From sequence record SRR31156797_1009: a stretch of DNA of 64,000 bases. One strand, given 5' to 3'. Every line of letters starts with the position of its first letter. The first letter of the stretch is position 1. The notes beneath the pieces are model-generated. The model had not been told where the DNA came from, searched no databases, and saw only the letters and a program-made list of their open reading frames with translations. Positions 26,943 through 57,659 of the stretch are shown piece after piece. Position numbers and translations under genes: made by a program.

Positions 26943-27197
26943 CTATAATATGGCTTTCTTGACTTCGTCAATACCGACTTTATTCAACAAACGCGCAGAA
27001 CGACTACGTTTCCCAGCGTTATCACGATAATAATCAAGAAACCGTTTTACCAACTCGACAGCTTCTTGACGGGTTAGCTCTTCTGCCAGCACATCCGCAA
27101 TACGTGGCCTGCCAGAAGCATTGCCCCCAACAACCATAGTCCACCCTTTGGGCTTTCCAATAAGTCCCACATCACGCACATAGCTTTCAGCACAGCA
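26943..27197 (-). pseudogene. 3' half (CC-AESYVRDVG...KKAIL) of the interrupted nitrite/sulfite-reductase-type siroheme/4Fe-4S gene
   Basis: Reading frame begins abruptly at TGC TGT GCT GAA AGC; joins in frame to the 5' half at 57654-58064; colinear with the homolog at 48155-48808. Confidence 0.92.
27192..27197. repeat. Left att core / direct repeat ACAGCA
   Basis: Identical 6-mer at 57654-57659; both mark the exact breakpoints of the split gene. Confidence 0.85.
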
Positions 27198-27382
27198 TTA
27201 TATATACTATTTTTTTTGTCAAGTGTGTATGTAAATAATTAGTATAAAAAGAATTAATTTACTACGATAACAGCTTGTAGAACTATTTTGTAAAGAAGTT
27301 TATCAAGAAAGAACTTTTCCACTTAACAAATTAACAATTTCTTGCCCAAGAGAAACAACCAACACCAATTCGCATTATAGAC

Positions 27383-27423
27383 AACAAGAGCAGGCTAGCT
27401 TAGATAGCTAGCCTGCTCTTGTT
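27383..27423. terminator. 18-bp perfect hairpin ending the cus operon
   Basis: AACAAGAGCAGGCTAGCT-TAGAT-AGCTAGCCTGCTCTTGTT immediately after the Met-rich gene stop. Confidence 0.75.
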
Positions 27424-27424
27424 C

Positions 27425-27880
27425 TTACATCTTCTTCATTTTGCCCAAAGTCTTCTCCATCTTCATGATACTGCCTTCCATCATGGGGATGCCGCTTTTG
27501 GGGTCCTTCTTGGTCTTACCCATTCCTTTCATCAGGGTCATCATATCCTTGTCCAACTGTTTCATGTGGCCCTGTGTGGACTTGTCGCCCTTCTTCATGG
27601 CGTGGCCTTTAACGGCCTCCATGCCATGGTGCATTTCGGTCATATGCTTGTTCATAGGCCCCATATGCTTCTTGCGATTAGCGGGGTCCTTCTTCATGTT
27701 TGCGACATCCATTTTCATCATGTGCAGGTTGTCTTCCATCATTTTCATGCCGTCATGCATGGAGACGGATTTACCATCCATTTTCATGTTGTCGTGGTCC
27801 ATGTTGGAAGCGGCAGAGGCAATGCCTGCGACCATCAAAGTCAGGACAAAAACAAAAGCGAGTGTTGTCATTTTTTTCAT
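27425..27880 (-). CDS. Secreted Met/His/Lys-rich putative Cu(I)/Ag(I)-binding protein
   Basis: Signal peptide (…GIASA|A); 31 Met and 9 His in 151 aa; last gene of the cus operon; AAGGAG RBS. Confidence 0.8.
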   Translation of the reverse strand: MKKMTTLAFVFVLTLMVAGIASAASNMDHDNMKMDGKSVSMHDGMKMMEDNLHMMKMDVANMKKDPANRKKHMGPMNKHMTEMHHGMEAVKGHAMKKGDKSTQGHMKQLDKDMMTLMKGMGKTKKDPKSGIPMMEGSIMKMEKTLGKMKKM

Positions 27881-27896
27881 AATTAACTCCTTAAAG

Positions 27897-30800
27897 TTAG
27901 TTTACTGTCTTGTTTATCCGCCATGGGAAAATTTTTCTGCGCGGTGGACATCTGTCTGACCTGTGGAACTTGAATTCCTCCACCATGCAATAGAGTGTCG
28001 GCACAACGAACACGGTCAGAATCGCTATTGTCATTCCCCCAAATGAAGGGATTGCCATCGGTACCATGATATCGGCCCCGCGCCCCGTGGAAGTCAGTAC
28101 GGGAATGAGAGCAAGAATTGTTGTGGCCGAAGTCATCAAGGCCGGACGAATGCGGCGCTTGGCACCTTCAAGAATGGCCTTGCGAATGGCCGGGACACTA
28201 CTCATATCCCTGCTGTCACGGCTCTCATCAAGATAAGTGGCCATAATGACTCCGTCATCAGAGGCGATTCCGAAAAGTGCGAGGAAACCAACCCAAATGG
28301 CGACACTCAAATTGATGGGGCTCACTTGGAAGAGGTCACGCATACTTGATCCGAATACACTGAAGTTCAGGAACCAATCCTGGCCGTACAGCCAAATCAT
28401 CATGAAACCACCGGACCAAGCCACAAGGATACCAGAAAAGACCATCAGAGTTGTCGCCACAGACTTGAACTGGAGGTAAAGGATAAGCACGATGACCAGG
28501 AGAGCTAAGGGGAGGATAACCGCCAGCTTCTTCTGAGCGCGAACCTGATTCTCATAATTCCCAGCAAATTCGTAGGACACACCGCTTGGAATAACGAGTT
28601 CACCGGATGCGATCTTGCTATCAATGTATTGCCGTGCACTTTCAACGACATCCACTTCCGCAAAGCCTGGCTTCTTGTCGAACAGGACGTAACCGATAAG
28701 GAACGTGTCTTCACTCTTGATGACCTGGGGGCCGCGAACGTACCGCAAATTAGCCAATTGCTTCAGAGGGATTTGCTCACCGGAAGGCGCGGCAACAAGA
28801 ATGCTGTTGAGGGCTTCGATACTATCGCGAAGCTCACGCATGTAGCGCACCCTCATGGGATATCGCTCCCTTCCTTCAACAGTGGTGGAGAGCATCTTGC
28901 CGCCAACTGCGACTTCGATGACGTCCTGAACCTTCTTCAACCTGATTCCGTAACGGGATATGGCTTCACGGTCGATGACGATTTCCAGATATGGCTTGCC
29001 GACAATACGGTCGGCAATAACGGCTGCGGGTTCGATTGACGGGACATCCTTGAGAAGACGCTCCAACTGAAGACCGAACGATTCAATGGTGGGCAAATCC
29101 GGCCCCTTGACCTTGATGCCCATAGGGGCACGCATGCCGGATTGGAGCATCACGATACGGGCCGCAATGGGTTGCAACTTAGGAGCCGAAGTGGTTCCAG
29201 GAAGCTCTGCCGCCTTGGCAATGTCATCCCAGATGTCATTGGGATTCCGAACTCCCTTCCATGCGTCCCGACCAGGATTCAAATCAGGATCAAGCGAACT
29301 TCTCCATAAGCGAAAGGGCTTACCTTCTTCGTCAGGGATGAGCTTTCCTTCCTCTTCGCGGGGGTAAAAGCCCTGTACGATGTAGGGCAAGCCATCACCT
29401 GCGGGGAGAGGCTCACCTTCAGCTGAACGAAAGTAATCCTTCTGGCTTTCATCAAAGCTAAACCGGAGACGCTTCCCACTCTCATCCACAAGATACTCAG
29501 GCTTGTAGTTGATGACAGTTTCAATCATGGAAACCGGAGCCGGGTCCAAGGGCGTTTCTGCTCGTCCAAGCTTACCGACTGCGCTCTCCACTTCAGGAAT
29601 ACTCAGGATGGACATATCCTGCTTGGACAAAACGTCTTGCACTTCACCAATGGAAGCATGCGGCATGGTCGTGGGCATATACAAGAACGAGCCTTCATCC
29701 AGTGGAGGCATGAACTCCTTACCCAATCCCGGGAAGGCATGAATGATTGCCGCCACAGGGCGAGAAGCGCGAACAGAGTCCGGCAGCCAGCCAGTCATGA
29801 CGTTGCCGCCAAGCCAGATAAAACCGCCAAACAAAATCACAGCGACAGGCATGACTAAAAACAGAGTCTTGTGATCAAGAACCCATGCCAGCATCCGGGG
29901 ATAACCGCGTTGGAAAACCTGGAAGAACAACATCAGGCCACCAATCAGGCAAGCCACGAAGACGAAGTTCAGCACATCTCCCTTTTCCGGCCCCAGAGGC
30001 AGCCAGTGGGTCGCCAGCACGATGGCGACAGCCGTGACCACACCGATATTCATGACTCTGCTAATAAGGGCGTCCAGACGGGGATGCAGCGATTCAGAGA
30101 ATATCTTTTGAAGGCCCGGAATGAGCAGGATCACGCCGATCCACCACTTCACGAAAACAGCTATACCGATGCCGGCCAGAATATAGCTTCCGCCAATAAG
30201 AAAGTCCGCGCTACGTTTTGGGCACTCTCGGTCATCACGCTTGTAAATGAGATGCGCAATGGCCGGCAGGACGGTAAGAGCAACAATGATCGAGGCGACC
30301 AAGGCAAACGTCTTGGTATACGCAAGCGGCTTGAAGAGCTTGCCTTCAGGCCCTTCCATTGCAAACACGGGCAGAAAGCTGACAATGGTGGTTGCAACAG
30401 CCGTCATGATCGCGCTACCCACCTCGGAAGCCCCATCAAATATAAGCTTGAGCCTACTCTCGCCTGTTGCCCCCTGCTCAAATTTCTTGAGGATGTTCTC
30501 ACAGATGATGATTCCCATATCAACCATGGTTCCGATGGCGATGGCAATACCGGATAAGGCAACGATATTGGCATCCACGCGAAAGACCTTCATGCCGATG
30601 AAACACATCATTACAGCCATGGGGAGCAGTGAAGAAATCAACAGGGAACTCTTCAGGTGCATCACGGCTATCAGTACGACAATGATGGTGATGAGTATTT
30701 CTTCGGTTAGCGCCGTGTTCAGGGTACCCAGAGTTTCGTTGATAAGGCCTGACCTGTCATAGAAGGGAACAATGGTCACCTTGCTCACAGTTCCGTCAGG

Positions 30801-31847
30801 CAAGACCTTGCTGGGCAGACCCGGAGAAATTTCCTTGATGACTTCCTTGACGTTCTTAATGGCCTGTAAAGGGTTTTCGCCATAGCGAACAACAACGACA
30901 CCGCCGACGGCTTCGGTACCGCCCTTGTCCAGCACTCCTCGGCGCAGGGCCGGACCAAGCGTGACCTTGGCCACATCCTTCACTCGAATGGGAACATTGT
31001 TGACGATCTTGATGACAGACTTCTCAATGTCTGCAAGGTTCTTGACGAAGCCAATGCCTCGAATGAGATATTCAACGCTGTTGATTTCAATCGTACGGGC
31101 ACCGACATCGAGATTGGACATCTTGACCGCAGAGAACACGTCTTCCAGCTTGACCCCGGTGGTGCGCAGTGCATCCGGGTCCACGTCGATTTGGTATTCC
31201 TTGACGAAGCCGCCGACAGACGCCGTTTCGCTGACGCCTCCTGCTCCGAGCAGAGCATAGCGGACGTACCAATCCTGTATACTTCGCAATTCATCCGGGT
31301 CCCAGCCGCCAACAGGATTGCCGTTCTCGTCCCGCCCCTCAAGAGTGTACCAGAACACCTGCCCAAGCGCGGTTGCATCCGGCCCCAGAGTCGGCTTAAC
31401 CCCTTGGGGCAATGTTCCCGGAGGTAAGCTGCTTACCTTTTCAAGAAGCCTTGAACGAGACCAATAGAACTCCACGTCCTCATTAAAGATGACGTAGATG
31501 GTCGAAAAGCCGAACATGGAGTAGCTTCGAACCGTCTTGACGCCCGGAATGCCGAGCAGGGCCACCGTGAGCGGATACGTGACTTGATCCTCCATGTCCT
31601 GCGGAGAACGGCCCATCCACTCGGTAAAGACAATCTGTTGATTCTCACCAATGTCAGGGATGGCGTCCACGGGGACGGGATCACGGGGAAGACCGTCGAT
31701 GCGCCAATCAAACGGGGCAACGACAAGCCCCCATCCCATGGCCATGCCAACGAGCAGGAAGACCACCAGCTTATTTTGCAGGCAAAACCTGATGAGCTTG
31801 TCTGTCAGCGTAGTCGCTCCTATGGGAGTCTCTTGTTCGTTAGCCAT
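27897..31847 (-). CDS. cusA: CusA/SilA-family heavy-metal RND permease (long form)
   Basis: PVDAIPDIGENQ, GPDATALG, GIAIAIGTMVD, EFMPPLDEG, RIRPALMT. Confidence 0.92.
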   Translation of the reverse strand: MANEQETPIGATTLTDKLIRFCLQNKLVVFLLVGMAMGWGLVVAPFDWRIDGLPRDPVPVDAIPDIGENQQIVFTEWMGRSPQDMEDQVTYPLTVALLGIPGVKTVRSYSMFGFSTIYVIFNEDVEFYWSRSRLLEKVSSLPPGTLPQGVKPTLGPDATALGQVFWYTLEGRDENGNPVGGWDPDELRSIQDWYVRYALLGAGGVSETASVGGFVKEYQIDVDPDALRTTGVKLEDVFSAVKMSNLDVGARTIEINSVEYLIRGIGFVKNLADIEKSVIKIVNNVPIRVKDVAKVTLGPALRRGVLDKGGTEAVGGVVVVRYGENPLQAIKNVKEVIKEISPGLPSKVLPDGTVSKVTIVPFYDRSGLINETLGTLNTALTEEILITIIVVLIAVMHLKSSLLISSLLPMAVMMCFIGMKVFRVDANIVALSGIAIAIGTMVDMGIIICENILKKFEQGATGESRLKLIFDGASEVGSAIMTAVATTIVSFLPVFAMEGPEGKLFKPLAYTKTFALVASIIVALTVLPAIAHLIYKRDDRECPKRSADFLIGGSYILAGIGIAVFVKWWIGVILLIPGLQKIFSESLHPRLDALISRVMNIGVVTAVAIVLATHWLPLGPEKGDVLNFVFVACLIGGLMLFFQVFQRGYPRMLAWVLDHKTLFLVMPVAVILFGGFIWLGGNVMTGWLPDSVRASRPVAAIIHAFPGLGKEFMPPLDEGSFLYMPTTMPHASIGEVQDVLSKQDMSILSIPEVESAVGKLGRAETPLDPAPVSMIETVINYKPEYLVDESGKRLRFSFDESQKDYFRSAEGEPLPAGDGLPYIVQGFYPREEEGKLIPDEEGKPFRLWRSSLDPDLNPGRDAWKGVRNPNDIWDDIAKAAELPGTTSAPKLQPIAARIVMLQSGMRAPMGIKVKGPDLPTIESFGLQLERLLKDVPSIEPAAVIADRIVGKPYLEIVIDREAISRYGIRLKKVQDVIEVAVGGKMLSTTVEGRERYPMRVRYMRELRDSIEALNSILVAAPSGEQIPLKQLANLRYVRGPQVIKSEDTFLIGYVLFDKKPGFAEVDVVESARQYIDSKIASGELVIPSGVSYEFAGNYENQVRAQKKLAVILPLALLVIVLILYLQFKSVATTLMVFSGILVAWSGGFMMIWLYGQDWFLNFSVFGSSMRDLFQVSPINLSVAIWVGFLALFGIASDDGVIMATYLDESRDSRDMSSVPAIRKAILEGAKRRIRPALMTSATTILALIPVLTSTGRGADIMVPMAIPSFGGMTIAILTVFVVPTLYCMVEEFKFHRSDRCPPRRKIFPWRINKTVN

Positions 31848-31859
31848 GTGACACCCCGG

Positions 31860-33986
31860 TTATTGCTTGAGCTGCTGGTTGGTTTCACCGCAGGTCAGCA
31901 TCGCACTCCCCATATACGGGTTGCGAACACTCTCATCCCGCTGAAGCCAGGTGGCACCTTCGTAGTCGAATGCCATTGGGCAGAATATCTCATACAAGGG
32001 ACCGCTGGTCTCAACGCCAAGCTTGAGGATTGCTTCGGAGAGCCCCACGGAAATCGGCTCAAATCCGGCCCTGACCGCGACGATGTCTTCGGCCTCATTC
32101 ACTGCCTCAAGCCCGTCGTTTATCTTCTTCAAAGCAGGCATCCAGACGTTATGGGCGGGGCCATTCAGAATGCTCATGTCCACCTTCTGCAAAGCGGCTG
32201 CAACCTGTATTGCCGCCAGCTTCGCTGCCTGCAAATTGTCTGCGGCCAATGCTTCGGACATGGGCTCATATTCGGCAAAGACCACACCGAGCTGCTTCTT
32301 GAATTCTTCCGGAGCAGTCAGTTCTGCCGCAGGAGCATCCAGCTTGAAGGCAGAGCGGAGTGTTGCGTAATGCCTTTCCATCTCAGCAAAAATTTCGTTC
32401 AACCGCTTTTCGTTGGGAGCTTCTGCACCGATCATGGCGTCATTACTCAATAGCATGGAGTATTCGCGCCACCTCAGGGCTGATTCCCCTGTCAGAGAAG
32501 ATCCATCTATAAGCCGCAGTTCCTTGTTGAACTGCCCAAAAGCAAGATGAGTCTTTGCCAATTCGGCGGTAGCGACTTCTGTGGCAAGGCTTTGGAATGT
32601 CGCATCAAGAAGTCGGATCTTGGACAGGAACAACGGCGGCAATTCATCTTCAACGGGAGTGGTTGAAGTGGCAGGATTCATCATGCTCGGCTTGGCAACG
32701 ATCTGAACCGCGCTGTCGATCTTGAAATTGCCCTTGGTGACAACCTCGTCGCTCTCCTCAAGGCCACTTCGGACGATGTAGTAGTTGTTGGCCTTGGCGC
32801 CGAGTACAATCTCACGACCTTCGTACTTGCCTGGGTTGTCGGGATCAACGACGTAGACAATGGCTCGCTTGCCAGTCAGCAAAGGAGCTGATGCCGGAAT
32901 GACCAATGGAAGCTCAGTCTGTTGCTTGCTGTCGCCTCCCTTCTTCTGGGAGGCACGAACCAACATGCCGGGCTTCAGACTACCGTCCTTATTCGGGACT
33001 TCAAGCCGAACCCGAACAGTACGGGTCTTCTCAGTTACTATGGGGTCAATGTAGACAACCTTGCCCTTAAACGTCTTGCCTGGATATGCCTCAGTCTGAA
33101 ACTCTATCTGCTGGCCGAGTTCGATCCACGGCAGATCAGATTCATAGGCCTCCAACATCACCCACAACGAGGAAAGATCAGCGATGGAGTAAATTGAAGC
33201 GCCCGTCTTGACGTACTGGCCCTCGTTGACATTCTTGGCCAGGATCACGCCCCCTTGGGGGGCGTAGAGCGTAATGTGGTCGGAAGCCTTGCCGTCACGC
33301 ACAACCCTGTCGACCTGGCTCTTCTTCAACCCCAGAAGACGCAGCTTCTCTCTGGCAGCTTCTTCAGTCCGCTTCGCCGTATTCTTAACGATCTCCAACT
33401 TGCTGTCCTTGAGGTCTCGCAACGTGCGAATGGATTCAATCAGCTCGGCTTGTGCCGTCAAAAGTTCGGGACTGTATATCGAGACCATGGGCTGGCCCTT
33501 CTTTACCAGGCCGCCGGTGTAATCTACATATATCTTGTCCACTCGCCCACCAGTCCACGCCGTTATCGCTCGGACTCGTGTCTCGTCATAATCAACCTTG
33601 CCGACCATGCGAATTTCGACATTCACATCCAACCTTTGCACCGGTTCAGTGACAATGCCTGCCAACTTGCGCGCACTTTCGGACAGTTCAATTTCTCGTA
33701 GACTCGTCTGCTCGGAAGTGTCCTTCTTCTCCAGAGGGATCAGTTCCATAAAACAGATGGGACAATTGCCCGGCTCGGGGAGTTGGATTTGGGGATGCAT
33801 GGAACATGTCCAGATGATGTTGCCAGACTCGTCAACCTTGCTCTCAAGGCCGTGCTCGGCATGCTCATCCAGAACGGTTTCAGTGGTCGGAGAACTCGTG
33901 TCCTTCACAAGATACCCTACGGAGAATGCGATAACACTGACCAGTATGATAATTATGACCAGCTTGGTGCTTCTGAACCTGCTCAT
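31860..33986 (-). CDS. cusB: CusB-family RND periplasmic adaptor with extra metal-binding domains
   Basis: WTCSMHPQI...CPICFMEL, YSPEL, LKPGM, C-terminal FCPMA...NPYMGSAMLTCG (DUF3347-like). Confidence 0.9.
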   Translation of the reverse strand: MSRFRSTKLVIIIILVSVIAFSVGYLVKDTSSPTTETVLDEHAEHGLESKVDESGNIIWTCSMHPQIQLPEPGNCPICFMELIPLEKKDTSEQTSLREIELSESARKLAGIVTEPVQRLDVNVEIRMVGKVDYDETRVRAITAWTGGRVDKIYVDYTGGLVKKGQPMVSIYSPELLTAQAELIESIRTLRDLKDSKLEIVKNTAKRTEEAAREKLRLLGLKKSQVDRVVRDGKASDHITLYAPQGGVILAKNVNEGQYVKTGASIYSIADLSSLWVMLEAYESDLPWIELGQQIEFQTEAYPGKTFKGKVVYIDPIVTEKTRTVRVRLEVPNKDGSLKPGMLVRASQKKGGDSKQQTELPLVIPASAPLLTGKRAIVYVVDPDNPGKYEGREIVLGAKANNYYIVRSGLEESDEVVTKGNFKIDSAVQIVAKPSMMNPATSTTPVEDELPPLFLSKIRLLDATFQSLATEVATAELAKTHLAFGQFNKELRLIDGSSLTGESALRWREYSMLLSNDAMIGAEAPNEKRLNEIFAEMERHYATLRSAFKLDAPAAELTAPEEFKKQLGVVFAEYEPMSEALAADNLQAAKLAAIQVAAALQKVDMSILNGPAHNVWMPALKKINDGLEAVNEAEDIVAVRAGFEPISVGLSEAILKLGVETSGPLYEIFCPMAFDYEGATWLQRDESVRNPYMGSAMLTCGETNQQLKQ

Positions 33987-34038
33987 GGTATCCCCTACTT
34001 CAACTTATATCGTTCATGGTCGGCTCATGATGCGAACA

Positions 34039-34302
34039 TCACGCCGAGACTTCTTCCAGGACAACGCCGTCGCGGCGCATCTTTTCCATGTAGAAATCAG
34101 GCTGCTTCTTAAAATCGCCTGGACAGGCCGAACAGCAGAAATAAATACGCCTAGCCTGGTAATCTGTGAACAAATCGCGGCTGACATCAAAGCCCATGAC
34201 AGGACATTTTTTCTGGTTGCCGGGAGCCGCATGGGCGATGCCGGCGACGAGCATAAAAACAACCATGAAAATGAATGGAGTAAATATCCCGTCAATTCGC
34301 AT
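34039..34302 (-). CDS. Secreted YHS-domain protein
   Basis: Signal peptide; CPVMG...IYFCCSAC..DFKKQPDFY. Confidence 0.82.
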   Translation of the reverse strand: MRIDGIFTPFIFMVVFMLVAGIAHAAPGNQKKCPVMGFDVSRDLFTDYQARRIYFCCSACPGDFKKQPDFYMEKMRRDGVVLEEVSA

Positions 34303-34305
34303 AAT

Positions 34306-38111: not shown

Positions 38112-38149
38112 GGGGACACTCCATAGAAAGGGAAAAAACGCACGCTTAG
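38112..38149 (+). repeat. Left 38-bp inverted repeat
   Basis: GGGGACACTCCATAGAAAGGGAAAAAACGCACGCTTAG; Tn3-type GGGG...ACG(C/T)T(T/A)AG. Confidence 0.9.
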
Positions 38150-38238
38150 AAAGCGCCCCAAGTGGTTCCCCCTCCTCTTAAATGTCTGACTGTTGTAATA
38201 ATAATTTCTAATTGCGAGACAGTAAAAAAACGCGATCG

Positions 38239-39609: not shown

Positions 39610-39611
39610 AT

Positions 39612-41453: not shown

Positions 41454-41486
41454 TATTCGGCTTTCCTTTTTCAGATCGAGACAGCC

Positions 41487-47839: not shown

Positions 47840-47880
47840 ACAACCTCCAAAACATGAGACAGCCAATACCAAGCAATATG

Positions 47881-48055
47881 CAGAAACGTTGTCCCCTCCT
47901 TGAACTCAAGCAAGTTGGTTTGCTGCTTGAAGCTGTCAAAGAGGTGGTGATAATCGGGCAACACACCAGCCGGGCCACGGTAAGTTGAGCGGAACGCTCA
48001 TCAAGCTCTCACAGCTAGGATAAAGAAGACACCTTCACCTTCTCCTTGGTAAGAG
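47881..48055 (-). pseudogene. Decayed internal fragment of a RecD2-like helicase gene
   Basis: Colinear similarity to 52418-52655, e.g. CACACCAGCCGGGCCACGGT(A/T)AGTTGAG and AGACACCTTCACCTT; frameshifted with a ~57-bp deletion. Confidence 0.8.
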
Positions 48056-48154
48056 GAAGACAAAATTGATGCGAAAGTATAAATCCCAGCTCTATTTTTG
48101 CTGTTCAATACAACATCAAGGAAGAGCTGGAATTACAATGTATTCGACAGCTTT

Positions 48155-48808: not shown

Positions 48809-48860
48809 TGCGGATTTCTCCTTGGTATTTTTAAGATTCATTACCCTTACAGAATGCCAA

Positions 48861-49262
48861 TCAACGTCGCTCAGTAGGAGGCATGGGCTTTTCGAGATCG
48901 GCCTTTGTCAGATTTCTTGATGCAGCGTTGTAGGCCCATTTTACAAGTTGGGCGGCCTGAGTGGATACCATCAGCTTGAGTTTAGCATTTTCATCTTCAA
49001 GCGCACTAATTCGATCTTGCTTTTTTTTCATCTCTTGAGGTGAAAATGAAATCTTATGCCCTTGGGATTCGCTGTTATGATCTTTTTTAGCGTAATATGC
49101 ACTCTTGATATCGTCATATTTCTGAAGGGTTTGCCTAGAATACTTAATACCAATAGATCGAGCAGACTTTTCAACAATGTTATCCCATGTAATCTTGCCC
49201 GTTAGGTCATTGATAACAGAAACTATCGCTTTTATACGATCTGGAGTTAAACGCTCAGGCAT
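48861..49262 (-). CDS. Small recombinase-partner protein (GinD/TnpC-like)
   Basis: 133 aa, HTH-like GKITWDNI..YSRQTL plus coiled coil; overlaps the third recombinase stop. Confidence 0.7.
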   Translation of the reverse strand: MPERLTPDRIKAIVSVINDLTGKITWDNIVEKSARSIGIKYSRQTLQKYDDIKSAYYAKKDHNSESQGHKISFSPQEMKKKQDRISALEDENAKLKLMVSTQAAQLVKWAYNAASRNLTKADLEKPMPPTERR

Positions 49263-51298
49263 AGCTCACCTACCTTCAATAAAGGGAAAGAGCTGTCTTG
49301 CCCTTCTTCCAAGTATTCTTGCCCCCTTTCATAATGGGCAACTATAATTTGTGAAAAGTCTTTGCCAGGTATGAGTTTGACAAAACTATTATCTGGGATA
49401 TCAGGATTTTCATTAATTGCATTTAATCCCTTAAGAACTGACAAGACCTGTTTGTGATGTATCAGAGAAGGATCAATTCCGACTATGGGATGCGCCTCTT
49501 GGCAATCAGCAATTTCCTTCTCCATCTTATTTATCAACGGCAGCAACGATTGGGAGAACCGACTGTCTCCTTTCACAAAAAGAGAGTTGGAACATAGAAA
49601 ATGGTCACCAATCTTTGGACAGATTTGACCGTCACCTAATGTACAGAACCCAACATCAATGACGTTAACCATCTCATTAAGCTGTCGCTCTAGGTACTCT
49701 GCCAACAAAGCTGGCTGGTTATAAATTTCATTCGTAAAATTAGTATTGCTTGGAGAAGCATCGCTTTGATCATTTATGGTTAAGGCTTTCTCAGCCAGAA
49801 CGACCTTATCAGCATGAGAGTAAGCCTGATTGTGTCTTATGTCTTTTCGACCAGCAAAATAAGCACGAGTCTGCTGAGCAATTCCACCATATTCACTCAC
49901 CGTATCTTGATAATGACGGAAGTTATGCGTTGAAATCTTTATTGGACTACCATCCTCTTCAGTAAGTCCGTGTCTGGCAAAGATAGTATTAGCGTAAGAA
50001 GCTGATCCAAACAATCTACAAACCGTACTCATGCTAACAGGCTGGATCATGACATTCTCATATGCCTTAGTATAATCTTTGAACCAATGAAGAGGGAAGA
50101 CTAACAAGCAATCTGAGTATTTCAATCCAGATTCTTTATGAAAATACGGGAAGTTATCCGGTAACAACGACAAAACATATTTCTCAATGTCTTTAAATCG
50201 AACCCGGTAGCTATTTTTGTTTTTATAAATAGGTTCAATACCAAACCCTTTAAAAATCTTGTGGTAAATATGAGCCCTTCCACAATTCAACAATCCCTTC
50301 AAAGCGACATGGTCAATATACTCTTCACTTCTAAGATAACTATACTCTTGAGGGAGATACATTTCTCCAGGGTTGTCTTCGTACCATAGAGCAATTTCTC
50401 TTGCTTTTTCGGTAACGTTCAGAATTTTACCAAGCGCTTCTAGAGTAAGCTCCTTCCACCCTCTGGGGACAGGCTTAGTTAATGGTGTCCCACCTTTTGC
50501 GGGGAACCAACGCAAACCAATAGCTCCTTCTATGCCTTCATGATTATAAACCACACAGTCAGTGCGCATAGACAAAACTTCACTAATTCTACAAGGATTT
50601 GAGAGAAGTATAACCCCAATAGAGGAAATAACTTTACAGATTTGATCTTTAGGATCGTTATAAATCTCACCCAACGCATACAGTGAACGATCTGTGGGCA
50701 GCTTGTCTGACCGATGTTCTAAATAGGCTTTCCCCGGCTCACGACCCGGACTGTTCTGCCGCACAGATCGAACCCACCGCATGGGAGGAATCTTCAATAA
50801 AGAGTTATCATTCAGGAACTTGGAAAGGACTTCTAACTTAGCACAGACGCTTGCTGCATTGTTGTGACAATAATAATCAACTGCCAACCTTTGGGCTTCA
50901 TTTAGCACATTTATATCTATGTTAGTAACACACGGAACACTGTGTACATTTACCAAGGCTTGTCCAAGAGCTTTAAGAGCACCCATTTGTGAAGCTAAAT
51001 CTTTAACATGCTTCATCCCATAAGAGTACCGCAAATAGGCTTTAGCAAAATCAACGAATGGCTTTTCCATTTTTACCGGATTATCATCTCTTGAGTCATC
51101 TCCAAAACGATACCAATACTGATTTCCACTCTTCCTAGATCGAAGTTCAATAGTCTTCGAAATTGGCCACTTCACATCACCCCAATCCAGATTAGCGCCA
51201 AAGACGGTCAACTCATTCTTGGCCATTGCGATAAAAGCGTTAACGTTCTCAATCGCGTCTACCTCACGCTTAGGTTTAAAATGTATGATTTGCGCCAT
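49247..51298 (-). CDS. Tyrosine recombinase 3 (GinC-like, 683 aa)
   Basis: CRISEVL, WFPAKGG, THNFRH, AGRKD..HNQAYSH; start reset to MAQIIHFKPK behind GAGG. Confidence 0.85.
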   Translation of the reverse strand: MAQIIHFKPKREVDAIENVNAFIAMAKNELTVFGANLDWGDVKWPISKTIELRSRKSGNQYWYRFGDDSRDDNPVKMEKPFVDFAKAYLRYSYGMKHVKDLASQMGALKALGQALVNVHSVPCVTNIDINVLNEAQRLAVDYYCHNNAASVCAKLEVLSKFLNDNSLLKIPPMRWVRSVRQNSPGREPGKAYLEHRSDKLPTDRSLYALGEIYNDPKDQICKVISSIGVILLSNPCRISEVLSMRTDCVVYNHEGIEGAIGLRWFPAKGGTPLTKPVPRGWKELTLEALGKILNVTEKAREIALWYEDNPGEMYLPQEYSYLRSEEYIDHVALKGLLNCGRAHIYHKIFKGFGIEPIYKNKNSYRVRFKDIEKYVLSLLPDNFPYFHKESGLKYSDCLLVFPLHWFKDYTKAYENVMIQPVSMSTVCRLFGSASYANTIFARHGLTEEDGSPIKISTHNFRHYQDTVSEYGGIAQQTRAYFAGRKDIRHNQAYSHADKVVLAEKALTINDQSDASPSNTNFTNEIYNQPALLAEYLERQLNEMVNVIDVGFCTLGDGQICPKIGDHFLCSNSLFVKGDSRFSQSLLPLINKMEKEIADCQEAHPIVGIDPSLIHHKQVLSVLKGLNAINENPDIPDNSFVKLIPGKDFSQIIVAHYERGQEYLEEGQDSSFPLLKVGELCLSV

Positions 51299-51323: not shown

Positions 51324-52034
51324 TTAGTCCCCCAGTTCTGCCCACCATTGTTCGCCGTCTTCCATTGGCATGGCCAGTGCGGTCCATTTAGTTCCTGTTT
51401 CTTCATATTGCCCAATCTGGTGCATGTGGAAGTGCCCAAAGTACCAATGCTTCGGTTTATAGCGATGAAGGATTGTGTCCAAAATCTGGCGAGTCTTCTC
51501 ACTGTGCTTTGCAAGCCAAGGAGCAGAGGCATACCCTTTGGGGGGTGGGCCTTCACGCAGCTTGAAACTTTGAGGGGCAGTATGTGAGATTACAATATCG
51601 ATCTCGATGTCATCAGGAATTTTAGCGATATCTGCAGCAGAAGGGATTTCATTTTGAAACCAATCCAATCCTTCGATTCTTCTCCACTGATCGCCTGAAG
51701 AAGCTCCACCAAAGAACAAAATATTCTGACCATTGGGAAGCGCCAAAACTGATCCACGAGGCTGGTAGTAGACGTTAGGCAGGACTTCGGTATTTCCCGT
51801 AGCCGCTATCTTGGATAGAGAGTAATGGTCCTCATGGTTGCCATCGATCCAGCGGATAACAACACCTTCATTATGAAGAGAAGGGTTCTCAGGCGGCCAG
51901 CCGTGATCTGGCAAACGAGGCCAATAGCCAAAATCCCCAACCTGTATTATTTGATTGGGTTGTTGTGTTTCACAGAGCCAATTAAGGACCTGAAAATCAC
52001 CGTGGATATCGCCGCAGATCAGGATTTTTTTCAT
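51324..52034 (-). CDS. Calcineurin-like metallophosphoesterase
   Basis: GDIHGD, GDFG, DGNHE, SHTAP, FGHFH. Confidence 0.88.
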   Translation of the reverse strand: MKKILICGDIHGDFQVLNWLCETQQPNQIIQVGDFGYWPRLPDHGWPPENPSLHNEGVVIRWIDGNHEDHYSLSKIAATGNTEVLPNVYYQPRGSVLALPNGQNILFFGGASSGDQWRRIEGLDWFQNEIPSAADIAKIPDDIEIDIVISHTAPQSFKLREGPPPKGYASAPWLAKHSEKTRQILDTILHRYKPKHWYFGHFHMHQIGQYEETGTKWTALAMPMEDGEQWWAELGD

Positions 52035-52035
52035 T

Positions 52036-54168
52036 CTACCACCTAAGCCCTACATTGCGACAATCAGCCGCGAATTTCCGTTCTAAGGCCCGTTCAAACT
52101 CTTTTTTGTCACCCGTAAGCACGACTTGCTTTTCGGCCCTTGTAATGGCCGTATACAACCATGAGGGGTCGAGCAACCTAGTCTGGTAAATCGGGACAAT
52201 GACTCGCTTCACCTGAGAACCTTGGCACTTGTGGCAAGTAATCGCATAGGCCAAAGAGAGATCGATGATCTGCCTCGCGTCGAACCTGACGACTTTATCA
52301 TCAAGGTTTGCCGTAAGGTCATATTCGCCACGATCGACGTCCAAAATATGCCCCAGACTGCCGTTGTAGACTCCACGCTGGTAGTCGTTCTTAAGGTGAA
52401 TCACCGGCTCGCCTGGACAGAAGTATTGCCCCAAGCTGCCCTTGAGTTCGGGCAAGTTGTTTTGCTGCTTATACTTGTCATGGAACTGGCGATTGAGCTG
52501 CCCCACACCAGCCGGGCCACGGTTAGTTGAGGTAATGATCATCAAGTCCTCGAAGCCGCCAAAGTCGTTCACGACCTGTTCAATGATTGCCGGGATTGAT
52601 TCCAGTGAAGCCGGGATGAAGGAGACACCTTCACCTTTTCCCTGATACTGAGAAAAAGTGGGCATACGCCTATCGCGCAAAGCCTTTGCCACCAAGGGGA
52701 TGCCGCTGTCTGCGGCCTGTCGATAAATCTTGTTGAGCCTAACCGTGATAGAATCGTCCTTCACAAGCTCATGGAAAACAAGGCCGAAGCCAATTGGGGG
52801 AAGCTGTGCAGGATCACCCGACAGAAGCAACCGGGACTCTTTTTTCATATGCTTCATCAACGCATGAAAAGTAGCCAGATCAACCATACTGGCCTCATCA
52901 ATAACAACTAATGTCCTTTCGTTGATCTCAGCCAGGTCGTTCTCTTCTTCGAGTTCGGCCAAGGTACGGGTTAACGTCTTTGCCTGCAGGCCCGTGCTTT
53001 GACTCAGTTTCAATGCAGCTTTACCCGAAAGGGTTGCCATGAGGGCGTTGCCGCCAAGCCTGTGCCAGAGCCGTACGACGTAACGCAGGATCGTGGTCTT
53101 ACCAGTTCCTGCGCCGCCTACCAGACAAGAAAGAGGCGAGCGCAAAATCTGAAGCATGGCCTGAAACTGTTCCTCGTCGGGCCTGATGTGACCAGCACTA
53201 AGCGTTGTGAGTATGTTCCTGACGTTTTGCTCATCGACTTTGATCTGGCCATCGTCCTCAAGCTGTCGCAAAGCTCCGATAACAGATCGTTCCATGAAGG
53301 CTGATCCAGGCGGCATCCACTTGCCGTCACGGTGGAGGACTGCACCGAATTCAAGCCCGAGCTGTACGGCATCGCACACTAGCTTAGAATCATCCAATTT
53401 AGCCATTAGCAGTGCTTCCAGATCAAAGAGACCAACTGAGGTAGAACCGGACGCTAGAATATCTCTGACAGCAGAATCAACGGCCCCAAGAAGTCGTTTG
53501 TTTGAAGCCTGAGGTGCAGCCGATCCAATTTCAAAAAGCACCTTGAGACCCAACGCATCGCATTGTTCCCAGCTCATCATTGACGCCATACACCAAGGAT
53601 TGTTGCGGAGCCGATTCACAACATCTGTTCCAAATGTGGTGGAACAGATTTTCAAAAGCCGGGGAGAGTCTATCCCATAAGATTGGAACCATGCAGCTAA
53701 GTCGGATTCTGCTTCCAGCCGTTTCCATTCACGGCAGACTAGAGAAGCAAGCCGAATAGAGAGAAGAGGACGGCTGGGCGCAATCACTTGGGCTATTTCA
53801 GACACGCTTCCACTGGACAGAACATTGGGCAGATTGTTGCCCCACATATCCCACAAACGATTTGCTCGGGTCGGGCCCACACCCGGGCAAGTATTGGACA
53901 GGAAATTAATCAGAAGCTTGCCTGTGGGCTTCTGACGGTATGCGTATTCAGCCTCCATCTGATCACCCCACTTCGTGTGCTTGATCGGTCCGGATACTTC
54001 CCATGTTTCACCCAATGAGGGAACGCCCACAATACGCGCAGCAATGACTTTGACCTGGATTTGATCGCAGGCCCGTTCATCATTGAGAATTTTCCCAGCG
54101 AAGATAGTACCGTAAGCCTTCTGGCTGACTATGCGCTTAACCTGAATCTGCACTGTTACTCCGGCCAT
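52036..54168 (-). CDS. RecD2/TraA-like SF1B DNA helicase
   Basis: HhH (PGVGPTRA), GGAGTGKTT, IDEASMVD, GDPAQLPPIG, YAITCHKCQGS, YTAITRA. Confidence 0.9.
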   Translation of the reverse strand: MAGVTVQIQVKRIVSQKAYGTIFAGKILNDERACDQIQVKVIAARIVGVPSLGETWEVSGPIKHTKWGDQMEAEYAYRQKPTGKLLINFLSNTCPGVGPTRANRLWDMWGNNLPNVLSSGSVSEIAQVIAPSRPLLSIRLASLVCREWKRLEAESDLAAWFQSYGIDSPRLLKICSTTFGTDVVNRLRNNPWCMASMMSWEQCDALGLKVLFEIGSAAPQASNKRLLGAVDSAVRDILASGSTSVGLFDLEALLMAKLDDSKLVCDAVQLGLEFGAVLHRDGKWMPPGSAFMERSVIGALRQLEDDGQIKVDEQNVRNILTTLSAGHIRPDEEQFQAMLQILRSPLSCLVGGAGTGKTTILRYVVRLWHRLGGNALMATLSGKAALKLSQSTGLQAKTLTRTLAELEEENDLAEINERTLVVIDEASMVDLATFHALMKHMKKESRLLLSGDPAQLPPIGFGLVFHELVKDDSITVRLNKIYRQAADSGIPLVAKALRDRRMPTFSQYQGKGEGVSFIPASLESIPAIIEQVVNDFGGFEDLMIITSTNRGPAGVGQLNRQFHDKYKQQNNLPELKGSLGQYFCPGEPVIHLKNDYQRGVYNGSLGHILDVDRGEYDLTANLDDKVVRFDARQIIDLSLAYAITCHKCQGSQVKRVIVPIYQTRLLDPSWLYTAITRAEKQVVLTGDKKEFERALERKFAADCRNVGLRW

Positions 54169-54617
54169 TCGGTGCGGAGAGAAGTCCCAGTGGATTCGAT
54201 TTGCGCCAACCTTGAAAGAAGCATGGCATTCTCTTCGCGTAAGGATTCGATCTCAGCCTCTTTTTCTGCGAGAACGCGGGCAAGGTTGTTCTTTTCGGTT
54301 GTGGTCCTTGCTAGGCGATCTGCGGCGGCTTTGTCGCTTTGATCTGCGAGCACACGAGAGCCAATTGATTTGACCCCTTGGACCAAACACAGTGCATTTA
54401 CGGGAGTAGCTAGCTCTGGTTTGCGATAGAAATGTTGCTCCTGGCTCTGGCGTAGACCAATAGCCTTTGCAATGGCCCGCACATTAACCTTGCCATCAGG
54501 TGTGATTGGCAATGTGGGCTGGCGCAGACTTTCAGATTGGGCATCCCAAGACGCATCAAGCTGCTCGAGATACGGCTCAAGTTTGGCGAGAATTTCAGGA
54601 GTAATGTTTTTGGGCAT
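54156..54617 (-). CDS. Small HTH and coiled-coil protein (TnpC/GmtX-like)
   Basis: GKVNVRAIAKAIG HTH-like segment, C-terminal coiled coil; coupled to the helicase. Confidence 0.6.
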   Translation of the reverse strand: MPKNITPEILAKLEPYLEQLDASWDAQSESLRQPTLPITPDGKVNVRAIAKAIGLRQSQEQHFYRKPELATPVNALCLVQGVKSIGSRVLADQSDKAAADRLARTTTEKNNLARVLAEKEAEIESLREENAMLLSRLAQIESTGTSLRTEWPE

Positions 54618-54625: not shown

Positions 54626-56230
54626 TCAGAAAGAGTCAACCATGTCGTCTTCAAGGTCGAGTTCTACAACTTCACCCTGTTGTATTTTTATAATAACCCT
54701 CTCGATTGCATGAATGGTCAAATCAAAAGACATGGCTAAACTGGGTTGAATGGCCTGCCCTCTTTCTTCGAAGGCTCTCAAATGAAGATCGCGCTCTCGC
54801 TTCAGAATCTTCAAATGCTCTTCATGAGTTTCGATGTCATTCCAGGCATTGAAGGAAAGACAGGTGTAGCAACTAAAAGGAATACGGGAGAGATAAGTTT
54901 CTGGCTCTAAAGAGTCTGCTAAATAAACTCCGCATCCAGTAGGTTTCACGCACACCCCTGTTTCTTTGGAGAGGTCTGAGGTTCTAACGGGGGTGTATGT
55001 TTGCCTTGTGCCCACCAGATTAGGCTTATCAAAAACTTTGCCTTTAAATGAGTCTATCAGGGGGGCGTAGTATTGGGCTACCCCTTTCTCAATGATATCG
55101 GCCATTTCTTGCCCCAAACGAACATACGCTCGGCATGTGACTGTATTTGAATGGTCCAACATTTGAGCTATAATATTAGGCCCATACCCCTGCAAAGCCA
55201 ACGAAGTACCTAAATAGTACCGTGCTCTACGAGATGAAATGCTAAGCTGTTTTCCTGTCCTAGATGGAATATGAACTTTTCTTGAGGCGTGACATCTAAA
55301 ACGAGAATTAAGAGCTGTCACCAAGGGATGATATTTCAAAGGACCATTTTCATTTTTGTCCCACTTGGAGTAGACCAAAGGTAACTGGCTTAAATCATAA
55401 TTTTCATCATAATATAGCGAAGAATATTCATTTTTTACGGTCTCAATTCTTCTTTGAATCAAGAAAGCTAAGTCTGAAGTGACTGTTCTATCCCGAAATT
55501 CCACACGAGGTTCAACATGGCCTTGCTTATCTCTTGGGACAGAAAGGATATATTTCGAGACAACTCCATCAACAATAACTTGTTTAAAGTCACATACTTT
55601 TAACCACGAAATCTGCCTAGGTCTGCACCCAAGCAAGTGCATCAGCAAAAACATCAGACAGAATGAATCATCCACTTTTCCAGCAGCGTACAATTCAAAT
55701 ACGTCTTTAAAGAGGCTTTGATATTCTTGCACTGTGTATGGCCCTTTTTCAGGGTCACAGGTCATGACAGCCTGATAACCAACCTCTGTAAATTTTTTAC
55801 TCTTAACAAAAAAATAGACATCATCTTCAACACCATCTAGTTTCAATTCATAGAACTTTTCAACATAGGCCTTCAGTGATCGACAATGTGACTTACGTGA
55901 TTTGTCAAAAAAGTTGACAAGTCTTGAGAATGAGAATTGATTTATTGAGCTATCTGCATCTACACAATCACGAAAAAAACTCTCAACAGCCTTATGATAC
56001 ATAAAAGCTGTCGAGAGACTATTCACTTCCACAAAATGAATCGTAACCCTTTTTATATTCCGAAAGAAATTAGCTGTAGCCTTACTCTGAATATCATCAA
56101 AATAAAAATGCCGCCGGTAAGATCCATCTGAAAGCTCCCAATGGTTGGGGCTGGGATCAAACACAATCCCCTGAAGACTGATGGTTTCATTTGGAAGGGT
56201 GTACTCTATATTTGGAGCAACACTGCTCAT
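54626..56230 (-). CDS. Tyrosine recombinase 2 (GinB-like)
   Basis: LGCRPRQI, PRDKQ, SRRARYYLGT, LDHS, RAYV, C-terminal CYTC; ATGA overlap with recombinase 1. Confidence 0.85.
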   Translation of the reverse strand: MSSVAPNIEYTLPNETISLQGIVFDPSPNHWELSDGSYRRHFYFDDIQSKATANFFRNIKRVTIHFVEVNSLSTAFMYHKAVESFFRDCVDADSSINQFSFSRLVNFFDKSRKSHCRSLKAYVEKFYELKLDGVEDDVYFFVKSKKFTEVGYQAVMTCDPEKGPYTVQEYQSLFKDVFELYAAGKVDDSFCLMFLLMHLLGCRPRQISWLKVCDFKQVIVDGVVSKYILSVPRDKQGHVEPRVEFRDRTVTSDLAFLIQRRIETVKNEYSSLYYDENYDLSQLPLVYSKWDKNENGPLKYHPLVTALNSRFRCHASRKVHIPSRTGKQLSISSRRARYYLGTSLALQGYGPNIIAQMLDHSNTVTCRAYVRLGQEMADIIEKGVAQYYAPLIDSFKGKVFDKPNLVGTRQTYTPVRTSDLSKETGVCVKPTGCGVYLADSLEPETYLSRIPFSCYTCLSFNAWNDIETHEEHLKILKRERDLHLRAFEERGQAIQPSLAMSFDLTIHAIERVIIKIQQGEVVELDLEDDMVDSF

Positions 56231-57513
56231 GTAGGCCAATCCTCTAACATTTGTTCCTGCATCAGAACTGATATTTCATCTGTTTTTCTTTGGATGAATC
56301 TTTGATTATACTTTTCAGGCATAACAGAACTAACGCTCCACCCCATTGCTTCTCTTCGTATTTCACGAACATCATCTGCTGACACCCCAGAAGCATCAGC
56401 ATATTCAGAAAACCGCTCGTTCCACGCATGCCTAATCACATGCTGTGTCAAATCATTTGGCAATTGACTGTGCTTATCCCTCAAGGTCGTAAAAATCTTG
56501 CAAGCAGAGCTATAGGCCAGAGGGGTGCCTGTTCTTGAAACAAACAGATAAGGATGCTTCTTGGCTCCTCGAAGACGCCTTCGATATTTCAAATACAGTG
56601 GTAACAGTTTCACCCAAGAAGAGCCAAGAGCTAGTGAACGCTCCAAAGTTTTTACTTTCGGAGCTGGGATACGACTTTCATCAGGATCATCTGGCCTTCT
56701 GACAATATCAATTCTAGGGCGATCACCCATCAGATAGACATCTTCTAATTTCAAACTTAGAGATTCACCCATTCTCAGACCAAGCATCACACACATAGTG
56801 ATATAGAGCTGATTCCTGATCCTTACAAACTTGTTTTTCCAAGGGTTATTAACATTGGCAGACTCAACAAGATCGAGAATTATGTCCTGTACTTCCTTCT
56901 CAAAACCACGTGGAGGAGATAACCGACTTTGACTTCTTGCCATATGCCTCGGAATTCTGTGCCTTATCCAACCTATGACTCTATTTGTAGCTTCAACTCT
57001 ATTTTCATACTCAGGATTTGCTCGATCCAAATTTTTCATCAGCTCAAAACTCATCCATTGTAGATACTTAGCAATACTATCCAAACGCCTTGCTTGAGTT
57101 GAATGGTTTACAAAAATTTCACTCGAGTCACCCAGCTTCGGAGGCTGCTCACCTATTCGCACTATGCCGACGTCTTTGGGAGAAACTGTATTTGAAGCAT
57201 AAGTATATTCCGCTTTCAAACTCTTCATACGCAGTCGACAGACATAAACTAAACTATCGATCTCTCTAGACGACAACATTTCAGAACTTTCAAAACGCCT
57301 TTCAAGGTCAAAGCCACATATCTTTGTCCACTCATACAAGAACTTAATATTATTAAGCTTTATAGTTATTGTCGAAGAAGAATCTCTAGGACGACAAATA
57401 CTTGCCACATAGTACGCGGGCAAAAATGGAACCCCCCCATCTGGAGCCAGAAGAACAGGAAGACGCTCTCCGTCTAAACCAATATTTTCGACAACAGTAT
57501 ACGACATGATCAC
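56227..57513 (-). CDS. Tyrosine recombinase 1 (GinA-like)
   Basis: Full R-K-HxxR-W-Y set: GLRMGE, KVKT, HVIRH, MGW, EKY; N-terminal GERLPVL. Confidence 0.9.
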   Translation of the reverse strand: MIMSYTVVENIGLDGERLPVLLAPDGGVPFLPAYYVASICRPRDSSSTITIKLNNIKFLYEWTKICGFDLERRFESSEMLSSREIDSLVYVCRLRMKSLKAEYTYASNTVSPKDVGIVRIGEQPPKLGDSSEIFVNHSTQARRLDSIAKYLQWMSFELMKNLDRANPEYENRVEATNRVIGWIRHRIPRHMARSQSRLSPPRGFEKEVQDIILDLVESANVNNPWKNKFVRIRNQLYITMCVMLGLRMGESLSLKLEDVYLMGDRPRIDIVRRPDDPDESRIPAPKVKTLERSLALGSSWVKLLPLYLKYRRRLRGAKKHPYLFVSRTGTPLAYSSACKIFTTLRDKHSQLPNDLTQHVIRHAWNERFSEYADASGVSADDVREIRREAMGWSVSSVMPEKYNQRFIQRKTDEISVLMQEQMLEDWPT

Positions 57514-57563
57514 ACCATTTGTTTACAAAATATTTTATTACAGTTTACATGAAATCACAACTC

Positions 57564-57593
57564 AAAAAAAAAGATAGGGTGTCAATCCCTATC
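57564..57593 (-). terminator. Terminator inside the element end, upstream of recombinase 1
   Basis: Minus strand GATAGGG-ATTGACA-CCCTATC-TTTTTTTTT. Confidence 0.7.
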
Positions 57594-57653
57594 CTTCTAT
57601 TAAAAAAAGATAAAAGTCGTCTAAGTTTACATAGTAAAGTGCGGTGTAAAGCA

Positions 57654-57659
57654 ACAGCA
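57654..57659. repeat. Right att core / direct repeat ACAGCA
   Basis: Matches 27192-27197. Confidence 0.85.

Follow-up and report, generated by a model that had tools for sequence, protein, structure and literature searches.

The DNA analyzed here, 64,000 nucleotides (nt) of sequence record SRR31156797_1009 (the window, meaning this whole stretch), carries what we take, with a probability of roughly 0.8, to be an intact element of the GInt type that entered site-specifically at the TGC-TGT codons for the two adjacent cysteines (Cys-Cys) of the C-x3-C motif in a siroheme/[4Fe-4S] sulfite reductase-like gene. The host is probably a Pseudodesulfovibrio. GInts, also known as the Tn6571 family, are genomic islands with three integrases and the genes ginABCD (Bardaji et al., 2017, PMC5385486). 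Such islands are common yet little understood. The interrupted gene is read on the minus strand, and its two pieces now border the element, as follows:

26943..27197, minus strand: 3' host-gene fragment, 84 aa plus stop, small NIR_SIR (alSiR-like), 100% identity with the C-terminal part of the unbroken L001 gene
27192..27197, no strand: attR junction hexamer, ACAGCA on the plus strand and TGCTGT in the sense of the gene (the Cys-Cys codons), from the sequence
57654..57659, no strand: attL junction hexamer, TGCTGT in the sense of the gene, from the sequence; TGTTGC, the host's own codons, in the second host
57654..58064, minus strand: 5' host-gene fragment, 137 aa, Pfam NIR_SIR_ferr and a truncated NIR_SIR
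58093..58758, minus strand: intact tandem paralogue, 221 aa, in host DNA outside the element, from library matches and alignment

The 5' piece, read from 58064 to 57654, translates as MAQKETPKG...KLKVGVSGCPMCC and its frame continues for eight codons into the element (CFTPHFTM*, with the stop at 57627-57629), and the 3' piece, read from 27197 to 26943, translates as CC-AESYVRDVG...KKAIL*; both pieces match Pfam NIR_SIR_ferr/NIR_SIR. In the nearest genome (G001), locus L001 holds a single contiguous open reading frame (ORF) of 219 aa from its ATG (...GVSGCPMCCAESYVRDVG..., ...KLKVGVSGCPMCCAESYVRDVGLIGKPKG..., ...GVSGCPMCCAESYVRDVGLIGKPKG...), and blastn places L001 1-1914 on window 59563-57650 at 96.7% and L001 1906-3414 on window 27197-25689 at 95.6%. 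The target gene is likewise unbroken across the insertion site at locus L002 of a second genome (G019). It was matched in 33 of the 41 related genomes searched, and at all 55 match places listed the frame stays open for at least 217 aa and is free of internal stops. Because the empty site of G001 aligns contiguously, the insert amounts to 30,456 bp (27198-57653), or 30,462 bp when a single TGCTGT is counted with it. The original prediction, made from the letters of the window, had described a host gene cut into 57654-58064 and 26943-27197, a 219-aa ORF restored in frame by removing 27198-57659 and a position next to trkA, and it had asked for an intact gene in relatives that lack the island. 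Both translations and the uninterrupted 219-aa gene of G001 bear this out, deletion of 27198-57659 yields a 219-aa frame, trkA (25411-26778) and trkH adjoin the site, and G001, G019 and the 55 open places supply the intact gene. The hexamer had further been called the only junction repeat; TGCTGT on the minus strand (ACAGCA on the plus strand) does stand at both 27192-27197 and 57654-57659, but the repeat goes on imperfectly beyond it (attL TGCTGT-TGCT, attR TGCTGT-GCTG).

A second species carries the same element, inserted at the identical base. Assembled contigs of four public runs (X1-X4), which drop rare variants, were compared with window 44100-64000; X1 may be the source sample, no RNA run was among those listed, and stretches without cover in X3 and X4 are uninformative. 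In a marine metagenome from another study (X2), one contig has 0 differences from the window over 44100-56076, and a second contig, over 56047-63018, has 575 differences and four gaps, the first difference falling at 57654, which is base 1 of the hexamer. The two contigs have similar depths (46 and 40). Identity to the window is complete as far as 57653 and is followed by ~10.7% divergence, the donor flank being absent on that side. Among 40 rows listed, 37 of 38 X2 variants carry the G019 sequence and one carries that of G001; the attL hexamer of X2 is TGTTGC, as in the intact gene of G019, and the G019 reference genome, which matches the host side of X2, has an empty site. That the identical element recurs in another species at this very base, joined to the attL hexamer of that host, indicates a transfer between species that was recent and site-specific, and provides a natural case of movement in which a letter-identical element occupies the same base in two species and the hexamer follows the host. 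Pieces of the element at 99% identity or above also occur in a sediment metagenome from a third study (X3). The element is possibly still excisable, as had been suggested, and this is strengthened by the full-length gin ORFs and by the presence of the same element at the same site in the second species.

Both ends of the element are AT-rich and carry recognizable signals:

27198..27424, minus strand: right (3') end, AT-rich, GC content 0.30 versus 0.47-0.49 in the flanks
57514..57653, minus strand: left (5') end, AT-rich, GC content 0.29

The right end consists of the box TTTACATACACACTTGAC, 20 nt and then the hexamer, and a layout of TACATACA(C/T)ACT(T/C)(G/A)AC, 19-20 nt and hexamer is common to both elements of G302, a genome of the host's genus. 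A perfect 18-nt hairpin (27383-27423) lies behind the last cargo gene. The left end holds three of the eight TGTAAAC sites of the window as direct repeats in the orientation of the gin genes, and a terminator-like hairpin (57598-57568) and a promoter-like site (57560-57532) stand ahead of ginA. No terminal inverted repeat of the element was seen among the 25 repeat pairs listed of the 37 found. For G302 element 1, empty sites show the two host sides running straight into each other, and its hexamers differ, being TATCTC at the left end and GCCAGT at the right. For Tn554 and SE elements, it is described that the 6 bp of the target remain at attL and those of the donor arrive at attR (PMC10214605), and excised GInts are described as showing variable 6 nt (PMC5385486). 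The unlike hexamers of G302 element 1 fit such a carry-over and are compatible with the variable 6 nt, and the hexamer is likely to be the crossover core and not a duplication. On this model, GinA, GinB and GinC together with GinD would recombine the circular element with its target over a 6-bp core; the target's own hexamer would remain at the ginA-side junction, and the hexamer at the far junction would come from the previous site. If carry-over holds, the identical hexamers of the window imply that the element came from a site that was likewise a TGCTGT Cys-Cys pair, in the same gene of another host. The attB of G001 and the G019-type attB are identical at 34 of 42 positions around the hexamer, and the system provides a concrete attB/attP together with a donor and recipient pair that bears on the 6-bp carry-over model.

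The recombination genes of the element are the following:

56227..57513, minus strand: ginA, tyrosine recombinase, 428 aa (Pfam Phage_integrase, E 1.4e-11)
54626..56239, minus strand: ginB, large tyrosine recombinase, 537 aa, with a C-terminal cysteine cluster (NCBIfam NF041502, E 7e-73)
49247..51298, minus strand: ginC, third tyrosine recombinase, 683 aa (conservation, AlphaFold2 fold and Foldseek)
48861..49262, minus strand: ginD, 133 aa, with a coiled-coil C-terminal part (36% identity, E 1e-24, to the fourth gene of the ssb-site element of plasmid pTROUS1)

All four are full length in comparison with their homologues, and ginD lies behind ginC in all 17 elements compared. In GinA, residues R247, H358, R361, H362, W392 and Y402 are invariant (alignment A3). 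GinB carries the catalytic R, R, H and Y; its match to NF041502 ('site-specific integrase') falls below the curated cut-off, and a profile built from GinB and its relatives matches the XerC-like 4a8e (E 3.4e-6) and XerD chains. The top matches of that profile, TAL-effector repeat proteins, were rejected as spurious, since they are assembled from many sub-threshold stretches, and the XerC/XerD matches are the meaningful ones. The longest ORF of ginC has 769 aa and starts at 51556, and its homologues begin at Met87, which gives the protein of 683 aa. GinC has no match in Pfam or NCBIfam, and its profile has 0 matches among PDB sequences. All 63 sequences (alignments A1 and A4) keep R237, E240, K268, R461, H462 and Y493, and at least 90% have H458. 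A search with the AlphaFold2 model of GinC (mean predicted local distance difference test, pLDDT, 83.4) against the PDB by Foldseek gave 18 matches at E 0.001 or better, and the matches listed are all tyrosine recombinases (Cre, IntI4, XerH, Tn1549 Int, and lambda Int). Profile comparison also links GinC to GinB (E 1.3e-4) through the C-terminal catalytic and Cys-rich parts, and hhalign of GinC with GinA is weak (probability 1.8%). Judged by its modelled fold and its conserved R-K-HxxR-Y, GinC is a tyrosine recombinase. The original prediction of three tyrosine recombinases and a small partner at one end was right as to the set, all of which lies within 8.8 kb of the left end, and wrong if taken to mean that the genes are contiguous: ginA and ginB lie at the left end, and ginC and ginD come after three other genes. 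A conserved cysteine cluster follows the catalytic tyrosine in GinB (G-C-x5-C...C-Y-x-C) and in GinC (C552, C560, and C569; alignments A2 and A4); it could be a zinc-binding module, and neither the GInt text (PMC5385486) nor the SE passages of PMC10214605 mention it.

Relatives of the gin genes occupy sites that have been published for GInts. A ginB homologue is present in seven of 401 genomes of the host's order, at eight places. At three of these (two in G302 and one in G232, all in the host's genus), the gene order is A-B-small-helicase-C-D without a phosphoesterase, and at the remaining five it is A-B-C-D, two of the five then having the small gene and the helicase. The flank of the G232 element found no counterpart when 40 further genomes of the genus were searched. 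The tail of ssb (…D[DE]xxPF*) stands just upstream of ginA at five of the eight places in the order, at five of six genome loci and at 10 of 13 metagenome loci, the other three of which have <100 nt of flank. GinC homologues were found on 68 plasmid records; in the two that were inspected (Pseudomonas aeruginosa and Klebsiella oxytoca), A-B-C-D lies directly behind an annotated ssb. The identities of the window proteins GinA/GinB/GinC/GinD are 33/27/32/36% to the ssb-site cluster of plasmid pTROUS1 and 30/25/29/30% to a second plasmid ssb-site cluster. The GinC profile matches 26 of 121 genomes sampled from one Pseudomonas genus, and all of the 20 upstream regions examined (of 30 places) hold an A or B homologue; in two of them, the cluster borders on the 5' end of a divergent ABC-F gene, and in two on the 3' end of nrdA, with GinC profile E-values of 1e-115 and 7e-114 for the ABC-F clusters and of 7e-154 and 5e-151 for the nrdA clusters. 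Among 1.84 billion representative proteins, the GinC-type family comprises 1,061 clusters at E 1e-30 or better. In G302, element 1 (25,222 bp) cuts a gene with an ABM domain between residues 52 and 53, and element 2 (40,130 bp) lies at the 3' end of the HU gene, where its left end rebuilds the last HU codons (KEAVR* instead of KDAVK*). The insertion sites of recombinase homologues, which the original prediction had asked to see tabulated, are therefore recurrently ssb, with HU, ABM, ABC and nrdA in addition. Because relatives stand at published GInt sites (ssb, ABC transporter, and nrdA), the element is filed as a GInt, and the GInt-like family proposed from the letters is upheld by the target sites named in the text of PMC5385486.

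Three further observations were made on these relatives. The ginB of G302 element 2 (locus L023, 9535-11159) lies in two ORFs of 132 and 396 aa, and this copy may be disabled. In six genomes of one Pseudomonas genus (loci L120-L125), an ORF of 250-270 aa that ends in ...LWTQL.EA... lies upstream of and divergent from ginA, and it may be another recurrent GInt target. A distant second A-B-C-D cluster (412, 490, 720, and 148 aa) is found in Pseudomonas rhodesiae (L084 7461-12796, contig 10 of G499), where it adjoins a gene for a Glu/Leu/Phe/Val dehydrogenase; this genome also has a cluster in L063.

As described in the text of PMC5385486, GInts have a ginABCD operon at the 5' end, cargo from the ginD stop onward, a short AT-rich 3' end, imperfect flanking repeats of 10-17 nt and staggered cuts of 6-7 nt. 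The window element agrees in having the order A-B-C-D on one strand near the 5' end, cargo that starts directly behind ginD and a short AT-rich 3' end. It also agrees in its site specificity, with short imperfect repeats, a 6-nt crossover and the same site in a second host, in the kinship of its Gin proteins (25-36%) to two plasmid ssb-site clusters, which is drawn by way of the published sites, and in its metal-resistance cargo. It differs in its target, which lies mid-gene in a cofactor-ligand motif, in cargo that holds an intact homologue of the target, and in its host, which belongs to the Desulfovibrionales, a group that is unnamed in the text of PMC5385486. The targets described there are gene ends and intergenic sites, with complete inactivation not expected. 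A new target class had been proposed, and the main text of PMC5385486 is in accord with this, as it lists no mid-gene redox target; its supplementary tables may list others. No paper combining 'ginABCD' with 'Desulfo' was found in the library searched. The range of GInts is in this way widened to the Desulfovibrionales and to mid-gene targets.

Several results weigh against this reading. Kinship with GInts has been recognised from relatives at published locations and not from the sequences of the type elements (Pht-PAI of strain 1448A and P. stutzeri DSM 4166). The ginABCD genes do not form one uninterrupted operon, since three genes (54156-54617, 52036-54168, and 51324-52034) split ginB from ginC, and GinC, which is said to lack the first catalytic arginine in GInts (text of PMC5385486), retains it in the window (R237, invariant in 63 sequences). 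Scans with single proteins in two collections (the six genome loci and 13 metagenome loci above) found relatives at 34% identity or less and did not find this target again; GinA above 34% identity was not found in either collection, and recurrence of the target is limited to the window strain and one metagenome. The carry-over of the hexamer is drawn from one relative, and in the second host the ginA-side junction is the one that was read. Neither a circle nor an empty site was seen in the host population, and no loose end at 57653/57654 was seen in the contigs of the runs, which cannot show rare forms. As to a rescue role for the spare target-type gene in the cargo, an intact tandem paralogue remains beside the split gene, and G302 element 1, which also interrupts a gene in its middle, has no spare ABM gene.

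Some of these features could be accommodated by an element of the Tn554 or SE type, in which ginA and ginB would be the two active recombinases, the small protein behind them would be like TnpC or Srap, and the third large protein and the 133-aa protein would be cargo or regulators; we regard this as improbable. ginA, ginB and the 153-aa gene do stand at the end in the order of Tn554, and the 6-bp behavior resembles the 'footprint' described in PMC10214605, with attL keeping the target hexamer and unlike hexamers in G302 element 1. According to that text, SEs are similar in combining an ordinary and a large recombinase with a coiled-coil auxiliary, in lacking conjugation genes and in having the target's 6 bp at attL and those of the donor site at attR. 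However, ginC and ginD follow ginA and ginB in all 17 elements compared, whereas the pair of 153-aa gene and helicase is present in only eight of the 17 and shifts its position, and GinC has the fold and catalytic residues of a recombinase. SEs have the order intA-tfp-intB-srap, with a Tfp that is second, catalytically dead and without RHRY (PMC10214605), while the second gene of the element found here encodes a recombinase that has R, R, H and Y, and the third protein, after GinB, keeps R-K-HxxR-Y; according to the same source, BLAST shows no similarity of SE proteins to those of GInts. The Tn554 family, including 'Tn552-II' as described by Wan et al. (2025, PMC12486829), has two recombinases and a small protein at one end, inserts into a coding gene with a junction sequence 'brought in' from its former site and carries a homologue of the target that is suggested to rescue its function, but it has no third recombinase or GinD-type gene, uses a 7-bp site, is ~9 kb in size and occurs in staphylococci; this comparison was made by description. 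The view of the genes as two recombinases plus TnpC was dropped once GinC proved to be a conserved third recombinase. RIT elements also have three tyrosine recombinase genes in a row, but their proteins are described as 315-410 aa in length and the elements as having 34-bp terminal inverted repeats (PMC10214605), as opposed to 428, 537 and 683 aa in the window.

To the same low degree, we credit the view that the island is fixed and immobile and that its presence in two species reflects transfer of a chromosome segment by homologous recombination. The contigs, which drop rare forms, contain no circle or empty-site variant, ginB of G302 element 2 is in two ORFs, and a helicase remnant and a nested transposon are marks of decay. 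On the other hand, all four gin ORFs are intact, and the identity with X2 ends at 57653, with ~10.7% divergence from hexamer base 1 and no donor flank there. Least probable of all is a regulated intervening element whose programmed excision would rebuild the sulfite reductase gene, as is known for the sigK and nifD elements. Exact excision would indeed make the frame whole again, and the target is a functional core motif; against this stand the large accessory cargo with its nested transposon, the use of ssb, HU, ABM, ABC and nrdA sites by relatives, the absence of the element from representative genomes of the species, and a spare gene that would make restoration needless. An intact GInt-type element that entered site-specifically at the Cys-Cys codons is preferred.

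The first cargo gene of this GInt-type element is itself of the target type:

48155..48841, minus strand: intact homologue of the split gene (tgl, for target-gene-like), the first cargo gene behind ginD (Pfam NIR_SIR_ferr and NIR_SIR)

This spare gene begins 19-52 nt after the stop of ginD and encodes 217 or 228 aa, its likely start being the second ATG (48808), which has AAGGAG 8 nt upstream. It falls into the same orthologous group as the split gene, sharing 64% identity with the intact gene of G001 and 37% with the tandem paralogue. Another genus of the family supplies the closest genomic match (73%), and the gene is thus an import. The short flanks examined beside its best genomic homologues hold no cytochrome c or gin genes. 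An origin as a chimera of target halves, considered because its N-terminal part is 71% and its C-terminal part 55% identical to the host gene, was rejected, as the N-terminal part is also the more conserved in the homologous loci L031-L042. At its own Cys-Cys site, the spare gene agrees with the G001 attB in 33 of 42 positions (34 of 42 for the G019-type attB that was actually used), and this site could act as a secondary point of attachment. The split gene is the end of a conserved run (58093-59986) made up of a ferredoxin-like gene (297 aa), a cupin gene (108 aa) and two tandem small NIR_SIR paralogues. The paralogues share just 37% identity, and their pairing suggests that they may work together and that loss of one could matter. 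A spare gene behind ginD would replace the function of the destroyed one, and for the host the outcome is that one of two tandem small sulfite reductase-like genes has been replaced by a foreign version and a metal-efflux system has been gained. A target-gene-like gene with a proposed rescue role is reported for the Tn554-like staphylococcal element, the sole report of this kind (PMC12486829). Inside G302 element 1, a search for a spare ABM gene found none at E <0.1, and a spare target gene is therefore not a rule of the lineage.

A broader proposal, which we consider doubtful, is that the element represents a gene-splitting GInt lineage that compensates for its own damage, with tgl probably co-transcribed with the gin genes, a Cys-Cys landing pad shared across species and a helicase-driven copy-out that leaves no empty site. 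The hexamer would then consist of codons locked by selection, as they ligate the siroheme/[4Fe-4S] center, the host function would be spared, and the RecD2-like helicase and its partner would drive replicative copy-out. The genes in question separate ginB from ginC, and a trace of a second helicase lies farther inward:

54156..54617, minus strand: small coiled-coil protein, 153 aa, helicase partner (80-84% identity in sister elements)
52036..54168, minus strand: RecD2-like SF1B helicase, 710 aa (Pfam AAA_30, UvrD_C_2, SH3_13, and HHH_RecD2; TIGR01448, E 6e-105)
51324..52034, minus strand: calcineurin-like metallophosphoesterase (library match)
47899..48057, minus strand: decayed second RecD2-like helicase fragment, aa 506-576, with stops inside (repeats D1 and D3; tblastn 41% identity, E 2.4e-6)

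In three sister elements, the pair of small protein and helicase is 79-84% identical at the protein level (79-82% for the helicase), versus only 33-53% for GinA-GinD. The pair is present in eight of the 17 elements compared, in the B-C interval in four and after D in four, and the 153-aa protein weakly resembles the small gene before the helicase in L026 (E 1.4e-5). The metallophosphoesterase has no match in loci L021-L028 and is unique to the window element among those compared. PADLOC gave only generic RecD-type matches for the helicase, and the word 'helicase' is absent from PMC5385486 (2017) and from the text of a 2024 preprint. The module would aid in forming or copying a circular intermediate. 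The helicase remnant sits between the spare sulfite reductase gene and a cytochrome c gene, and it may be the scar of an older A-B-C-D-small-helicase order or of recombination between two GInts. The helicase module (eight of 17 elements) and the spare target gene are two accessories pointed to here; the original prediction had omitted both, together with the nested Tn3-family transposon and the likely nature of the hexamer as a crossover core, each of which was found.

The remaining cargo, from the right end inward, is as follows:

27425..27880, minus strand: Met/His-rich secreted protein, 151 aa (translation; homologue in the same place in G302 element 2)
27897-31847, minus strand: CusA-like pump (Pfam ACR_tran)
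31860-33986, minus strand: CusB-like fusion protein with a heavy-metal-binding domain (HlyD_D23, HMBD, and DUF3347)
34306-35712, minus strand: outer-membrane factor (Pfam OEP)
35989..38091, plus strand: HAMP-SpoIIE phosphatase (library match)
38112..46211, no strand: nested Tn3-family transposon, 8,100 bp (terminal inverted repeats of ~39 nt; 5-bp TTATA duplication at 38107-38111 and 46212-46216)
38239-39609, minus strand: sigma-54 response regulator, passenger in the nested transposon
39612-41453, minus strand: histidine kinase, passenger in the nested transposon
42491-43117, minus strand: resolvase, in the nested transposon
43254-46178, plus strand: TnpA, in the nested transposon
46295..47296, plus strand: membrane HATPase_c sensor-kinase-like protein (library match)
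47369..47872, minus strand: c-type cytochrome, 167 aa (library match)

The efflux system is CusCBA-like, of the Cu/Ag type of RND systems, and the 151-aa protein is probably its metal-binding accessory. In a contig of run X4, the transposon end at 46211/46212 runs into unrelated DNA, which shows that the transposon also occurs elsewhere. The RND genes (27897..35712) share 74% DNA identity over 8.1 kb with G302 element 2, and much of the cargo and the right end share 65-78%. As G302 element 2 has other A and B genes and another target yet similar cargo, these likenesses point to modular exchange between the recombinase module and the rest of the element.

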